Of a stretch of 64,000 nt of DNA, positions 6,495-45,070 are shown one piece after another (position 1 is the stretch's first letter; every line of letters begins with the position of its first letter). The translations under genes and the position numbers were made by a program. The notes under the pieces are model-generated. The model ran no database searches and had not been told where the DNA came from. It was given only the letters and a program-made list of their open reading frames with translations. The stretch is from Lama guanicoe (lineage: Eukaryota), in contig MU053557.1 in NCBI GenBank assembly GCA_013239625.1, positions 4,060,123 to 4,124,122 on the forward strand, read 5' to 3'.

Positions 6495-6773
<279 letters not shown>

Positions 6774-7515: not shown

Positions 7516-7728
<213 letters not shown>

Positions 7729-9856: not shown

Positions 9857-10296
9857 CAGAGAGAACTGAGTTGTCCTATTGGTCCATTCAATTCTGTGTA
9901 ACCAGCTTGTGGTGCAGTGTCTGGCATATAAAAGGCCTTAAATGTTTTCATGGATGATTTACTGAATTAATGTCAATTTTAGAAAATCTTGTCTCTCTTG
10001 TAACACTGCTGGGTGTGTGAGTAATAGATGGCACCACAGTGCTTCCAGGAACTTTCTATTTGGAATCCGAAGTCCTGGACTCTCATTCTGACTCCCTCAG
10101 ATGACTTCTGGGTGACCAGGAGATGGTCATAACACCTACTCTGGAGCCTCAGTTTCCTCATTTGTAAATAGCAACAATGACTAACGTACCCACCCCTCAG
10201 GGCAGTTGTGAAGATCCAGTGAGAGCCCTCAGTAAACTGGACACTGATGCAAATGGAGGTAGATTGCTTCCACGGTAATTCCCTTTATTATGAAAG

Positions 10297-10498
10297 GGCT
10301 GGCTGGCTGGCTGGCTGGCTTGCTTTCTCTTTCCTTCTTTTCTTTTCTTTTTCCTTCCTTCCTCCCTTCCTTCCTTCCTTCCTTTTCTTCCTTCCTTCCT
10401 TTCTTCCTTCCTTTCTTTCTTTCCTTCCTTCCTTCCTTTTCTTCCTTCCTTTCTTTCTCTTTCCTTCTTTCCTTCTTTTCTTCCTTTCTTTCTTTCTT
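10297..10498. repeat. Compound microsatellite: (GGCT)n then about 175 bp of (CCTT/CTTT)n
   Basis: Seen directly. Confidence 0.95.
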
Positions 10499-11461
10499 AA
10501 CTAATCTTTCTTCAGTTCCTTAGACCAGATCCCAGGGTGGTGAGAAGCAGAGAGAGAACGGGTGAGGCCATTAAGAGGAAATAAGGATACTGTGACAGCA
10601 TTTTTAAAGCATTTACCAAGTCTTTCTGTATACATCCTCATACTGACACTTTTAAAGTATGTCTGATCATTATGCCCCCTACTTTACTGTTAGGGAAATC
10701 AGAATTTAATAGGTTAAACACCTGGCTTACAAACACATATCCAGAGAGTAGTGGAAGCAGGGTGCCGCCAGCCTGACTCTAAAGCCCACTCAACTGAGCA
10801 AAGTGGCTCAGTCCCTCAAAAGTAGGGTGGAAGCCAGGTGAGGCCCATCTCAAGAGTGGGCCTTCTCCTCAGGAAGCTGCCCTGTCAGAGTTGCTGTTGC
10901 CGCTGAAACATGAAACAACTCCAGCTGATCTTCACATGTTAGTACAATCCCAGAAAATCAGAGGCTGTTGATTTCTGATGCAGGCCTCAAGTGTCCCACT
11001 CAGACGTGGGACATGGTTACAACACACACACACACACAAACCCAACAAAAAACCCAACATTGTTAACTATACAATGTCTATGGTATGAAATACACACACA
11101 GCAACTAATAAGAATGCAGAGGAATCACGTTGATGTGAAATGTTGAAGCTGTACCGCAGAAAAGGCAAGCTGCAGTTACTATATACTGCATCATCTTATT
11201 TATATATAAGAACAAACCAAAACCATGTATTTTTACATGTACATTTGGACACATGTAAATACACAGAACATATTCTTGAATTATATAAGCCAGCTGGTAA
11301 AAGGAAGTAACTTCTTGGGAGGGGAGTGGGGTTAAGGTGGTGTCAAGGGATATTTTACTGTATCCATATTATTAGAAATTTTTATAATGGGGATGGAGTG
11401 CATAAATATATTGTTTCTGTAACCCATCATTTATATCTAAAAATATAATCTGCACATTTAG

Positions 11462-13016: not shown

Positions 13017-15324
13017 TAAGACATGTGCTGGGGTGAGCTGGAAAAAAAGGAAAGAGAAAGGAGAGACCTAGTCTAAACTGAATATAATATAAATATAGTA
13101 GTTAGAAATATAAGCAGTTTCACTTTTCTTCTCTCTCTGTTGCCAAAATGTGTGGAATGCAGCCTTTCATTAAATCCCATCAACTCGTCAAGGTTGGAAG
13201 TTCATCTCTGGTAAATTCTCTTTCAACCCGCCCTAGCTTAAAGAGCCCCTCGTGGGAGGCGGGTGCCTAACAGCCCTCCAACGCTCACGTCTACCTTTTA
13301 AACGTGGAAGCAGAGGGCAGGCTCTGTGCACTGGCTCCCAGTTAGAATTTAATAACCTTGCTCTGTTTTCATTAATTTCTCTCTATGGCTGCTTCCTACT
13401 TATGGTGAGTAATACCGATTTTCCATTTGGTGTACTGACATAATATTTCTTTCTAAAATAAATTTATGTAAATGAAAACTTAAATTGACTTAAATTAAAA
13501 AAGTAAATAACAGTACAAGCAGGATACATATTAGGTATAAATCCTTGGGTGACACATGTTGGAACACTCAACGATCCTACCAGCTCAGAGATTTTCTTCA
13601 TTTTGTAGATGAGAAAAGGGAGTCAAGTCCTGGTTAAGCCCCAAAGTGACACGTTGTCCCAAACTCAGGCCTTCAAATCCGTCCCTGATTTGTTTAAATT
13701 CAAACCAAATATTCAGCCTCAGTTTTCTAGGTTGGATGGAAAAGAGATTGCAAATTACGGCTAGAAGAGGTAAATGCATTAGTCTTTCTTCCCCCTCCAG
13801 GCTAGCTATTACAGTAAGGACTTTGACCAGAGCAAAACAGAGTAATAGAGAAAAAGAGAAAAGCAATATTGATCTCCCACCAAAGAGAGATATAACACCA
13901 AAGAGAAAAACGGGGAGACAGCATAGCACCAAGAAGACGTTACTTTTGTTCTTACTTGAAGACAATATCAAAGGCAATTTAGTTATAGCCCCTCCCTGTC
14001 CCCTCCCTCATCCCCACCCCCATGCCCACCCTGCATTACCCAGCTAGACAGCAATTTGCTTTGGGACAGAGCAAATTAGCAGCATGACATGAAAATGTTG
14101 GTCAGATGAGATGGTGAAATCTCAGAAAGAACGAGTTTTTCTACAAACACATGCTTGGGCGTCAGCTGAATTTGGTTTTTATCTCTTTTGCTTTCTACCT
14201 GCTCATGGTGAGCTGGTCGGGAAGTGTCAGGGCTTCTACCTGGACAGCCCTGTGGGCTGGAGCGTCAAGTTGTGAAGCAGCGCAGGTGAACCCCCATTAT
14301 CCCAGGCATGGGGCAGTCTTATTGCAGCATCCATCACCCCAGAGATTGTCAAGGCCAATCTGGCAGACATGGCTGGGGCCACGTGCTCCTCCTCCCCAGA
14401 AGCATCCCTTCTTGACACTGCAGGCTTCCCAGAAGAGGATGGCCTTCTCAGAGAAGACGACAAGATACAGCTTGTCCTTCCTTGACGAGCTCTAAGTCTC
14501 CTCCTTGCGAGTCTTCCATACACAGGTTACATTACCTGGATTCCTGGAAGCCAGAGATTTAAGCAATACCAGGCTATCAGCTGTTCAGATAGAACAAGTC
14601 TGGTTCTGTCTTGTGAACCTCCAATGTGGGCATCACCCACATCATCTCTGCCCTGGTCCAAAGAGACAGTAAAGTTTGCTTGTGAGGCCCTCTCTGCAAA
14701 GGGGACCTCCTTCTTGACAATGGAAAGGGCTCCTATTCCTGCAGTTGCTGCCCTTTCCCTGATCCAGGGTGTGTGTGACCGCTACAGATACCAATCCCGG
14801 GCTGGCCCACAGAAGCATGACCGGAGAGTCCAGAAGATATAGATCTGTGACATGGTAAGATCTCATTTTCCCATCTATGTTGTAATCTCTGGATCCCTGT
14901 TGAATTCGAATAGCCATTTAATAAGGGAGACTGCCACTGAGAAATAAAATTTTGTGTAAGCAGATATGCTTGTGAGCTCCTGGGAAGAGAAACATTTGAC
15001 AGGGAAGAATCTTACTGTATTTATGTATGTGTGGATGCACATATGTATTAAACAGTAGGTCTTACTGGGTTTGGGGGGGCATTAAACAAAGTTTACTAGT
15101 TGCTGCAAAGCACTGAACATACCCTTCTCACTGTGAGGTCATTCTATGATCTCTGTCTTAGACCTTCCCAAAGAAGTTCTTTGTGCTTTGAGGAGAACAG
15201 AGACCACATTCAGACAGCAGGTGGAGAGCTCTGTACCCTCGAATTCATTCATCTCTGCCTTTTCTGTAAAAAAGTGGAAAAAAGGAAATACAACTCTGAG
15301 GAGGTGCATTAACCCTCAGCACGA

Positions 15325-15533
15325 GGCCCCACTGCCTCGCGCCTCTCTGGTCACGCTGAGGGTCAGGAGAGATGCCGGGGTGTCCTGTTCACGCAGACAA
15401 GAATGGGAATGAATGGCTTAGTTGTCAGCCACGTCCTCAATCAGCAGCTTGATCCCAGGGATTCTGGGTCTTTCTGTATGGGCAGTTTCTCGAGTTCCTG
15501 GTGATGTCCACTGTGCAGAACTGTGTACCTAGG
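15325..15533 (-). other. HTR4: Local duplicate of HTR4 exon a plus proximal 3'UTR (a'); potential tail [R]YTVLHSGHHQELEKLPIQKDPESLGSSC* at 15441-15528
   Basis: Ungapped manual alignment to 17188-17396: 13 mismatches in 209 bp, offset 1863. Confidence 0.93.
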
Positions 15534-15543
15534 TGACTTCGAT

Positions 15544-15634
15544 GAGGTGACCCACTAGCCTAGTTTGTCTTAGGACTGAGGGGTCTCCTGGGATGTGTGG
15601 CTTTTGGTGCTAAAACCAGGGTGTTGGCCCCCTA
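15544..15634 (-). mobile_element. MER81-like hAT-Blackjack MITE, internally deleted
   Basis: aggtgaccc...ggactgaggggtctcctgggatgtg...gtgctaaaacc...gttggcccccta resembles the MER81 consensus with both TIR remnants. Confidence 0.7.
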
Positions 15635-16416
15635 GTCCTATGTGGAGTCTGACTATCCCTCTCACCACATTTGGGAACAGAGAGAAGAGGGAAGGATATT
15701 GGGTTCTTCCCTCATGGATGAAACGGGTGATACGGAGGCAACAGTGGCTTCTGAGATCATACAGGAGTGAAGACAGGGCCAAGAGACCAAGTAGAAGGAC
15801 AAGGAAAACTGATGAGGTTAGACACTCCTGGGGCATCTTTATCTTGTAGTGCATGTTACATACGCACCAACCAGCCCCCAGGTTGCCTGTTCTCTAAGCT
15901 TCCCTATAAGGACCAGCAACCAGCTCTCTCAGTTAGGGTTTTTATCAGCAGCAAAAAGAAAGGCAACTGAAAAACCTCAGAGTCTCAACCAGAGGAGATA
16001 ACTCACCCCAACATAAAGTCATACGGTGGTAGCTTTGACATCTGGGGAGCATCTCCTTAGGAGCTTGGAGGAAGTGAGATACTGGAAAAAAATATAGGAA
16101 AATGGTAGCCCAGGAGCTTCACAGGAAGGAGGCCAATGAAGTTTCCCAGTAAAGTAAGATGGTCTGTGAGTATGTGTTTGCCCAAAGGAGTAAATTTCCC
16201 TGCTTAAGACCAGGCACTGCTTCAGCACGGGGCCTTTAAAGCCTCTAAAAAGTGTCTTATAGGAGCAACTAAGTTTACCTCCCAAAATCTGAGTGGTAGG
16301 ACTATTCTCAGTAAAGGTGTAGGTCCTTTTCCCACTGTCATGGAAGGGGAATTAATCAAGACTTATTTCAAATGACCTCACAGCCAGGATGCCAATGAGA
16401 AAATGCCATCTTTAAA

Positions 16417-16508
16417 CACACACACACACACATACACACACACACACACACACACAGACACACACACAGACACATACACACACACACATACACAGACACA
16501 CACACACA
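16417..16508. repeat. Imperfect (CA)n microsatellite between exon a and its duplicate
   Basis: Seen directly. Confidence 0.95.
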
Positions 16509-16779
16509 CCCCCCAGACCGGCTATAAAGATGCCTTTTGGCAATGGATCCAAAATCAAGACCTAAGCAGACCCAGACTTTCTAAAGGTCATCCCCAGGAG
16601 AAAAAGAAAAGAAAAATGTTCATGTCTATAAATCAAAAACTGTTGATGCTTCACTTATAATTCAGTGTTTCTGGACAGATATCCTGGCACTGATAGCAAT
16701 CTAACTTCATTGAAAGAGCCTTGATTAATTCACCCACCAATGCATGTCCAGAAAAGATGGCCAGAATGGAGAGGAAACT

Positions 16780-17130: not shown

Positions 17131-17303
17131 TGCACTGGCCTTGGGTCCTGTCCAACCCTGTCATCCAGGTACCTTCCCTGGGTTCTCGGCCCCACTGCCT
17201 CGTGCCTCTCTGGTGGTGATGAGGGTCAGGAGACATGCCGGGGTGTCCTGTTCATGCAGACATGAATGGGAATGAATGGCTTAGTTGTCAGCCACGTCCT
17301 CAA

Positions 17304-17391
17304 TCAGAAGCATGATTCCAGGGATTCTGGGTCATTCTGTATGGGCAGTTTCTCGAGTTCCTGGTGATGTCCACTGTGCAGAACTGTGTAT
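17304..17391 (-). CDS. HTR4: HTR4 terminal exon a ([R]YTVLHSGHHQELEKLPIQNDPESLESCF*)
   Basis: ctttctttcctccctag|A TAC ACA GTT...TGC TTC TGA; matches the 5-HT4(a) tail. Confidence 0.96.
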
Positions 17392-18524
17392 CTAGGGAGG
17401 AAAGAAAGACAGTTTGAGAATTTGACAGGCATCCTTCAAATGCATCAAAGAGACCACTCCCACCACTCCCGACTTCTTTTGGGCTGCAAGCTTCTGGGAG
17501 CATGGCGAGGTGGCGCTGGGCATGGGTGGCACTTCATCAACAGGACAGCCCAAAGAATGGCACCTGAACTGCTCATTTTAAAGGTGAGGAACTGAAAGCC
17601 TGAAGGAAAGGACAGGACCAGGGGTAAAGAAATAGTAAGGGGCAGACCTAGGACTGGAACACACACTTCTTTCCCTGCAACAAAGCCTGGGGCTCTTGTG
17701 CTGCTCATCAAAATGGACCCTATGTACCACCTCAAGCTGTATCTAAATATGCTAAGTTCCCTGCCAGGGATGGTTCTGGGTTCAGCAATATCAGTGTGCT
17801 AACTGAGATCAGTAAACCACTCAGAGCCTGAAAGACAGTGTAGCTACATTTGTTAGTTGCATTCCCTTTGATGACATTTGGAACAATAAATCAATTAGAT
17901 GAATCTGAAGCAAGTCGACTCTAAGCATCAGAGTGAAACTTACTACTTGACAAGTGTTTATTATTTTTCTGCAGTATCCCACAGTTGCGCTCAATACGTT
18001 AATTGCATTTAAATCAATCTCAATTGCAAGTGGCTCTTGTCAGTAACTCAGTTTCCAGCATCTGGCAGTTATTCTCATGACATTTCTGCAGAGTTTAGGA
18101 GCACTATTACCTCTCATACCTGAGGCGAGCATCAAGCCCATTCAGTAAAACAAATAAACAAACACATACCAGTTACTTGGTACCATACGTTGACAACCAA
18201 CTTGGTGGTTTTTCAAGAATTATGAGAATGCTTTCTTCAAATCATAATAATTTATTGCTTACCTATGTTGACTGGTTGGTGTGTACCAGGTACTGGACTA
18301 AACCCTCTCCATGCATTACCTTATTTAGTCTGCACAACAGCCCCATGAGGTAGTCTTATATTCATTTTTCATTTGTGTAAAATGACACATAGCTTCAGTG
18401 ACTTGCTCAAAGGAGAACAGGTAATACATGAAGATACAGTAAGTCAAACCCAATCTATCTGATGCCAACACCCATGTGCTTAAGGGGTTTGCACACAGCC
18501 TCTGGACCACGTATAACTTTAGAA

Positions 18525-26942: not shown

Positions 26943-28297
26943 AGAGGTCTCAAGGAGTCAAAGAAAGTCAAAGAAAGGAGAGAGAAGGAGACAACAGTAC
27001 AGGCTGTGGACATAGGACTTTCTGCCTTCGGCCATTAATTCAGGAAACCTAAGGCATCAAGAGAAAACGAGCTACCAGAGAGCATGTGTATGTATATGTC
27101 TCTGTGAATCTTTTACTAGCAACACTTCAGTTATCCAAAGGTCAGGTATCCAGATCCAGTGACCGTAACTATCCACAAACCTGCACAGAGGTGTTTTTTG
27201 CTTTTTTTTTTTTTAAAGGCCTCTGAGTAATCAGAGTAGTTGCTCCAAAGGTACAAACTTTCCTTGTAGTCTTCCCTGGTTTTTCACTCAGAGGATATTT
27301 AAACTTAGTTCCCATACAATTCTAGAGTGCTTGGTTCTTCCACATACAGCAGAGCAGAGACTAGAAAATAGGATGGGAAGGGAGATAGGTAACGCTAATG
27401 CTAGATAAACTGATGATAGCTGACATGTGCAAAGAGAATAGAAACATAAAAAAGGCAACAAAAATCAACACAGCAAAACCAGCTGGGGCCATGTAAGGCA
27501 GAGGAAAATATTTCAAACATCCCCAAGGCCATTACTGTAGTGTAAAATAACTTACTAATAGAAGTTCAAAATAACGACTTTGAACAAAGTTACTCAAAAT
27601 CTGATTTGTTACTAGGGTAATCCAAATTGAGTCTATAGTTCACTTAATAATATTGGCTAAATGCTAATTTCCTGTCTTTTGATAAATGTTCCACCGTTAC
27701 ATAAAATGTCAGCATTAGGGGAAGCTGTGTGAAACGTATATGGAAACATTCTGTACCATCCCTGTACCATTCTTCTATAGATATGAAAGTCTTTCAAAAT
27801 AAAAGGGGTTTTAAAAAAATAAAGACTGAAAAAAACCAGTTTAGTCACAATTATTTGTTTGGGAAAGATGGAGTTCATCACTTCTAGCCAAAGACACACC
27901 GGATGAACTGAGTCCTCGGATAACCCAGATGAGAGAACTCTGGGGACCACAGCTACACTGGCTGAATTCGGCTCCAACAAGTGCTCGTCTCCCAGAGGAC
28001 GTGGGAAGTCTGTGCTCCCAGAACACGGAAGAAGCCCAAATCAAAATTTTAAGTTAAGGAATAGAAAATAAAGTTCTCAAGCCATATGAATCTTTGGCCT
28101 TCAGGTCAATAGCAATCAAGGTCCAGGAGAAACTCTGGGTGTGGCAGACCTCTGCCAACAACTGATAGTGATGTGTCCAGTGGACTCAACCTGGTCCAGT
28201 GAGGATGGAAGAGTAAGCAGAAACCAAGGGCACTTCGTAGGAAGAAGGGAGTGGACAGACACAGGCAGACGCGTAACACCGACAGTGACAGACTTAC

Positions 28298-28373
28298 AGA
28301 GCACGTTCAGAGTTAGACAGGAACTGGTCTATTGCAGAAGAGCAGGAAGAAGCTGGAGACAGAGGGACAGCCA
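28298..28373 (-). CDS. HTR4: HTR4 cassette exon g ([S]GCPSVSSFFLLFCNRPVPV*, coding 28313-28373) with nested e (28352) and f (28328) acceptors
   Basis: ctaaaag|T GGC TGT...GTC TAA; gtaagt donor at 28297-28292; RPVPV terminus is the known 5-HT4 e/f/g tail. Confidence 0.92.
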
Positions 28374-44979: not shown

Positions 44980-45070
44980 CTAAGTGTCTCTGGGATGAGC
45001 AGCCACCAAAGGAGAAGTTGCTGGGGGGTGGTATTGACTCTCCCATTGGCCACCACACTCCACTGCATCC
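44980..45070 (-). CDS. HTR4: HTR4 terminal exon b ([R][29 protein letters not shown])
   Basis: Minus strand cttctcccctctctag|G GAT GCA GTG...ACT TAG; matches the 5-HT4(b) tail. Confidence 0.95.

Follow-up and report, generated by a model that had tools for sequence, protein, structure and literature searches.

A 209-bp partial duplicate of HTR4 exon a in Lama guanicoe, probably a neutral pseudo-exon or passive 3'UTR sequence

Introduction

The HTR4 gene uses alternative 3' exons (a, b, g/e and others) to produce C-terminal variants of its receptor after Leu358, as described in PMC2644495. The same paper presents the SCF end of the 5-HT4(a) variant as a class I PDZ ligand, with SNX27 and NHERF among its binding partners. 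In 5-HT4(a), Cys386 is palmitoylated, and among 142 vertebrate species this residue is missing only from the sifaka receptor, according to PMC7292288. A first-pass annotation of the locus described here, made from the sequence alone, had treated the ESCF end as a PDZ ligand for SNX27/NHERF with a palmitoylated penultimate Cys, which agrees with what the two papers report (PMC2644495 for the ligand, PMC7292288 for the Cys).

We searched the literature for a duplicated HTR4 exon a and found no published mention of one. De Maeyer et al. 2008 (Physiol Genomics 34:22) reportedly described 'exon duplication' variants of the porcine 5-HT4 receptor, that is, in an artiodactyl. The duplication in those variants is said to be a 'homofusion' of transmembrane exons and not to concern exon a.

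Here we describe a second copy of the start of HTR4 exon a, denoted a', in the genome of Lama guanicoe. It is most likely a lineage-specific partial duplicate of the exon. We compare it with its parent, with the other HTR4 tail exons and with related mammalian sequences, and weigh whether it adds a tail to the receptor, adds a regulatory element to its mRNA, or does neither.

Results

HTR4 tail exons and their surroundings

We analyzed a 64,000-nucleotide stretch of contig MU053557.1 (assembly GCA_013239625.1, positions 4,060,123 to 4,124,122), referred to below as the window; all coordinates are window positions. The HTR4 tail exons in the window all lie on the minus strand, with their first bases at 45070 (b), 28373 (g/e), 17391 (a) and 15528 (a'). 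The last common HTR4 exon is located 961 bp past the right end of the window and ends in ...INGSTHVL plus AG, followed by gtgagt. Because the common exon ends in this way, all tail exons are entered in phase 2. The intron that begins at the common exon is about 47 kb long, and the acceptors of a and a' are found at its end, 1.86 kb apart.

The b tail exon (44980..45070, minus strand) begins with a split-codon (R). The g/e-type tail exon (28313..28373, minus strand) reads (S)GCPSVSSFFLLFCNRPVPV and has its stop codon at 28313-28315. A donor-like GTAAGT was observed at 28291-28297 (minus strand), 15 nt past this stop; the donor motif that the first-pass annotation had placed after the g exon is therefore present, as GTAAGT at 28297 on the minus strand.

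Other open frames were observed in the window. Two of them, on the plus strand at 6495-6773 and 7516-7725, the second ending at 7725, have the appearance of final coding exons from a gene converging on the HTR4 3' end. This gene may be FBXO38, which the two frames resemble. In the Protein Atlas, the plus-strand frame 7516-7725 was present from residue 29 on, and the search returned no named match for it. At 10200-10520, a purine-rich low-complexity repeat lacks stops in several frames of both strands, which produces pseudo-ORFs of KEGRKE-like and SFLPSF-like sequence.

A 209-bp copy of the start of exon a

The copy a' (15325..15533, minus strand) aligns without gaps to the parent segment (17188..17396, minus strand), with 196 of 209 positions identical and 13 mismatches. 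The two segments have the same orientation and a start-to-start spacing of 1863 bp. In a blastn self-comparison of positions 11-22 kb, they formed the sole pair other than microsatellites (E 1.7e-87), and the flanks of the one could not be aligned with the flanks of the other. The parent segment is the start of the true HTR4 exon a, with its first exon base at 17391, its stop codon at 17304-17306 and a tail ending in ...ESLESCF. The homology runs from 5 nt upstream of the exon boundary, where both copies read cctag, to 113 nt past the stop codon. The copy (15325..15533) is thus made up of 5 nt of intron, one split-codon base, 28 codons, a stop codon and 113 nt of proximal 3'UTR. A gapless repeat of this spacing and mismatch count, starting 5 nt upstream of the exon boundary, had been noted in the first-pass annotation; the alignment and blastn reproduced the former, and the shared cctag in the alignment bears out the latter. 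A (CA)n microsatellite of about 130 bp is located between the parent and a', at 16398-16529.

The potential coding part of a' (15441..15528, minus strand) begins at exon base 15528 (G) and consists of 28 codons (15444-15527) and a TGA stop (15441-15443). The parent exon a translates to YTVLHSGHHQELEKLPIQNDPESLESCF and a' to YTVLHSGHHQELEKLPIQKDPESLGSSC, with the stop at the same codon in both. The two tails are identical at 24 of 28 residues. There are five differences in the coding part: an A>G change at the first exon base, which is silent in the split Arg codon, and the replacements N>K, E>G, C>S and F>C. The phase of the copy matches the common donor, since AG+A in exon a and AG+G in a' both give Arg, and the AG is kept at 15529-15530. 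The earlier statements that a' keeps the phase and has its TGA at the same codon, and that four of the five coding differences are non-synonymous with three of them in the last four residues, were borne out when the phase was checked against the common exon donor (...THVL plus AG, then gtgagt) and when the two copies were compared.

The replacements change the end of the tail. The predicted a' tail ends in ...LGSSC, with GSSC where exon a has ESCF. By the definition of a class I PDZ ligand as S/T-X-hydrophobic in PMC2644495, the a' sequence does not form one: it ends in S-S-C, with Ser at -2 and Cys in place of Phe as the last residue. The penultimate palmitoylated Cys (Cys386 in mouse; PMC7292288) is replaced by Ser, and a Cys occupies the last position instead. 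From its sequence, the a' tail would therefore lack two defining features of an a-type tail, the PDZ ligand and the palmitoylated Cys.

This raises the alternative that a' is a working alternative last exon, in which case the common donor would splice to 15528 and the receptor would end in GSSC. Such a receptor would be without a class I PDZ ligand and without the penultimate palmitoyl-Cys, and its trafficking may be altered. The retention of the AG, phase 2, the open frame and the stop speaks for this alternative, as does the concentration of the amino-acid changes on the functional end of the tail.

Related tails in the protein database

We searched the protein database with the exon a tail preceded by 15 in-frame intron residues, which gave 9 matches from 10 candidates, the database being clustered at 90% identity. 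All nine relatives end in ...DPESLESCF, including a bat protein named by NCBI as '5-hydroxytryptamine receptor 4 isoform X2'. The a' tail was found in none of the nine. This counts as weak evidence against a working a' exon, as clusters at 90% identity could mask such an isoform.

One predicted database protein, P0012 (146 aa; 8 members from 5 contigs), contains the N-terminal third of the receptor up to the DRY motif, joined directly to the exon-a tail. It reads ...ISLDRYTVLHSG...ESCF and looks like an exon-skipping transcript that reuses a shared 'RY'.

Divergence of the two copies

To polarize the differences between the copies, we used seven outgroup tails for the coding part and six read-through outgroup sequences for the UTR. 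The latter (P0006-P0011) are ORF predictions in the protein database in which the TGA stop is read as W; being ORF-like predictions on mammalian contigs that read through the stop, they serve as outgroups for the 3'UTR too. The match of copy A, the segment at 17188-17396, to the exon-a loci of other mammals continues downstream of 17188. This identifies copy A as the parent, in its ancestral context.

Eleven of the 13 differences are derived in a', one is derived in A and one, at the first exon base, is unpolarized. Those derived in a' are seven UTR changes and the full set of amino-acid replacements (N>K, E>G, C>S and F>C). Residues E, C and F of the ESCF end, which is invariant in nine of nine outgroups, have been replaced in a'. 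At codon 18 (17337-17339 and 15474-15476, minus strand), both copies encode Q and all nine outgroups encode H (...LPIH). The shared Q, a lineage-specific change in an a tail that is otherwise highly conserved, means that the copy arose inside this lineage or that the two copies exchanged sequence later.

We then compared the coding and UTR parts of the a' branch. They have diverged alike (4 changes in 84 coding nt and 7 in 119 UTR nt; Fisher p = 1.0). The branch carries four non-synonymous coding changes and no synonymous one; with counts this small, weak selection could still be present. Given N/(N+S) = 0.786, neutrality alone would make all four changes non-synonymous with a probability of 0.38. 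We ran 100,000 neutral simulations, each placing 12 substitutions in the 209 nt; the 28-codon frame and the stop survived in 73%, and the AG as well in 64.5%. As neutral simulations often keep the frame, the intact frame of a' is no evidence of function. On these counts, the substitution pattern of a' is that predicted by neutral decay. This weighs against a working exon in two ways: coding and UTR divergence are equal, with the polarized coding changes all non-synonymous and all on the a' branch, and 64.5% of neutral copies would look equally 'intact'.

The distribution of the changes along the copy is uneven. They form clusters at positions 80-89 and 178-182 of the copy. The end of the frame holds three of the four amino-acid changes within 10 nt, and four of the UTR changes are packed into five bases. 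The clustering of amino-acid changes at the end could reflect positive selection for a new end. However, the second cluster lies in the UTR, so a mutational cause, such as error-prone synthesis at the time of copying, would be no less likely than selection. No difference is seen in the first 56 exon bases of a' (p = 0.019, post hoc), which could reflect constraint or gene conversion instead of drift. For a working exon, this stretch identical to the real exon is a favorable point, as splicing enhancers were possibly copied with it and could offset the poor pyrimidine tract described next.

Splice acceptor of a'

We compared the acceptors of the four tail exons and ranked them against every AG dinucleotide of the window's minus strand (4,511 in total). 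The acceptor of exon a (17392..17433, minus strand) has an uninterrupted pyrimidine tract of 16 nt and a pyrimidine fraction of 0.94 (-20..-3), and the nearest upstream AG is 44 nt from the exon start. The acceptor of b has a fraction of 0.89, a longest run of 15 and its nearest upstream AG at 26 nt. For g, the fraction is 0.67 and the longest run 9, and a scan of 40 nt upstream revealed no AG. In the ranking, a and b reach the 100th percentile, and g the 91st-94th.

In the putative acceptor region of a' (15529..15570, minus strand), the AG is kept, the pyrimidine fraction is 0.61 (-20..-3) and the longest run is 4. A second AG is located 8 nt upstream, and the sole yTnAy motif has its A at -15. 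Among the 4,511 AGs, this acceptor ranks at the 83rd percentile for pyrimidine fraction and at the 42nd for run length. By these pyrimidine measures, the predicted a' acceptor resembles a random AG. The earlier suspicion that the pyrimidine tract of the parent had not been copied and that the acceptor is weak was correct, with a longest run of 4 against 16 in exon a. The missing tract and the AG 8 nt upstream both count against a working a' exon. The position of the two acceptors, 1.86 kb apart at the end of an intron of about 47 kb, would make kinetic competition between them possible and counts in its favor. Transcripts reaching a' would, however, already have been offered the far stronger acceptor of exon a.

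Poly(A) signals and the place of a' in the transcript

We scanned the sequence downstream of exon a for poly(A) signals. Neither AATAAA nor ATTAAA was found between the exon a stop and position 14922, a distance of 2.38 kb. The first cluster of poly(A)-signal-like hexamers past both copies (14917..15097, minus strand) consists of AGTAAA, AATACA, CATAAA, AATACA and ATTAAA, and at 15097-14917 it sits 230-410 nt past the end of a'. The lack of a canonical hexamer between the exon a stop and a' suggests that a' is probably within the 3'UTR of exon a, and it is a further point against a working exon. In the simplest reading of these signals, a-type mRNAs would run through a' to the hexamer cluster, and a' would be 3'UTR. 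The weak poly(A) variants GATAAA, AATGAA and TTTAAA are present between the two copies, and given these, exon a could end before a'.

Taken together, a' is probably a neutral pseudo-exon or passive 3'UTR sequence. The first-pass annotation had put a' forward as a potential new tail, with the fallback that it 'may only be 3'UTR'. Of the first proposal, the duplication is confirmed, as is an open frame with its AG, phase and stop intact, but the working isoform gains no support, in view of the neutral-like decay and the random-like acceptor; the fallback is the better reading, given the strong exon-a acceptor upstream and the absence of a canonical hexamer before a'. It is unlikely that a' works as an alternative last exon. 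Appreciable use of it as such, in fifth position among the last exons, would give a natural 'PDZ-dead' a isoform born of a 209-bp duplication, matching 5-HT4(a) apart from a GSSC end and lacking the SNX27/NHERF ligand and the palmitoylation site of the Cys386 type; this is likewise improbable.

A possible regulatory element in the copied 3'UTR

The roughly 110 nt after the exon a stop (17188-17303, minus strand) are strongly conserved in the six other mammalian sequences, P0006-P0011. This conserved stretch may be a regulatory element of a-type mRNAs. We therefore considered whether a', though non-coding, could be useful by doubling this proximal 3'UTR element, for example its microRNA or protein sites. 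The copied part includes the conserved stretch of about 110 nt, and the copy is probably in the same 3'UTR as exon a, both of which fit this idea. However, seven of the 11 changes derived in a' fall in its UTR part, at positions conserved among the outgroups. Changes at such positions are evidence against constraint on the element in a', and we consider a useful non-coding role very unlikely.

Presence of both copies in the genome and in DNA data sets

We searched the assembly (2.05 Gb in 55,231 contigs) with an exon-a probe, which matched exactly two places (2 of 2 candidates): copy A, with 100% identity, and a', with 94%. Apart from a 78-bp repeat fragment, the flanks of a', taken as 851 bp upstream and 1021 bp downstream, occur nowhere else in the genome.

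We also searched a word index of public sequencing runs with positions 15150-15650, which listed 24 runs on 43 sampled words. By this index, 14 DNA runs (8 studies, with six organism labels, A-F) contained 0.84-0.91 of the sampled a' words, both junctions included, and the RNA runs X15-X20 contained 0.05-0.23 of them. One of the 14 DNA runs may be the source of the assembly; the others are independent. The presence of a' words in independent DNA runs indicates that a' is not an artefact of a single assembly. With an assembly as fragmented as this one (55,231 contigs), there might be a single exon a, the second copy having come from mis-assembly of an allele or from a chimeric join. Such an artefact is extremely improbable, as 6% of sites differ between the copies, the flanks of each are unique to it, and 84-91% of the sampled a' words in the index are present in 14 DNA runs from 8 studies.

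An alignment-based pattern search for the orthologous loci of other mammals matched 225 pattern stretches, of which none was confirmed. A protein search with an ORF spanning the 3' junction of a' (15137-15409, plus strand) gave no match.

Origin and age of a'

Three routes by which the copy could have arisen were examined and rejected. The first is a tandem duplication of the whole exon plus spacer. The spacer is unlike the sequence past a', and only the 209-bp pair matches in 11-22 kb. The second is a retrocopy. The copy includes 5 intron bases and is flanked upstream by an old repeat fragment where a retrocopy would have the common exon; we saw neither an A-run nor a flanking direct repeat. 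The third is carriage or insertion by a transposon. The old dispersed repeat fragment next to a' (15543..15620, minus strand; 78 bp) stops 9 nt short of a'. Eleven further copies were scored in the genome, at 77-88% identity; the fragment ends where these relatives end and is uninterrupted.

We propose that 209 nt, made up of the first 204 nt of the HTR4 terminal exon a and 5 intron bases, would have been duplicated at the DNA level and inserted 1.65 kb further downstream in the same orientation. The mechanism was probably break repair in which a short insertion was templated by the nearby exon, and error-prone synthesis at copying would fit the mutation clusters at 80-89 and 178-182. The copy would later have decayed neutrally, and the parent exon and its proximal 3'UTR would have stayed conserved. 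Without a pyrimidine tract, behind the strong exon-a acceptor and before the first good poly(A) signals, a' would, if transcribed at all, be found only inside the long 3'UTR of a-type mRNAs, and it would have added no protein tail.

The a' branch carries 11 changes in 209 nt, or 5.3%. Neutral rates in mammals are 1-2.2e-9 per site per year. Together these suggest that a' is some 20-50 million years old. It would be younger if the change clusters date from the copying event.

Discussion

The two copies form a parent/copy pair that can be polarized, and the pair displays constraint on the exon-a tail and proximal 3'UTR against the free drift of a'. As a pseudo-exon, a' itself matters little, being one more lineage-specific example, though a clean one. 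Were a' to be spliced, nature would have provided a test of how the SCF end contributes to the trafficking of 5-HT4(a), and a GPCR tail variant would have arisen recently by micro-duplication. The open frame of a' may be called an isoform by annotation pipelines, and caution is advised for such calls.

Compared with known systems, a' is closest in sequence to HTR4 exon a, which it resembles in orientation, phase, frame length and stop position, with 94% identity over 209 nt. It differs from exon a in having no pyrimidine tract, GSSC instead of ESCF, and a neutral-like pattern of change. It is located in the same array as the HTR4 tail exons, downstream of the common donor, in the order b, g, a, a'. 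The known tail exons, however, are mutually unrelated in sequence and have good acceptors, whereas a' was copied recently from one of them and its acceptor is poor. In its chance open frame, lost splice signal and neutral rate of change, a' resembles the pseudo-exons and decayed tandem exon duplicates found in vertebrate introns and UTRs. It differs from decayed tandem exon duplicates in that only 209 bp were copied and not a whole tandem unit.
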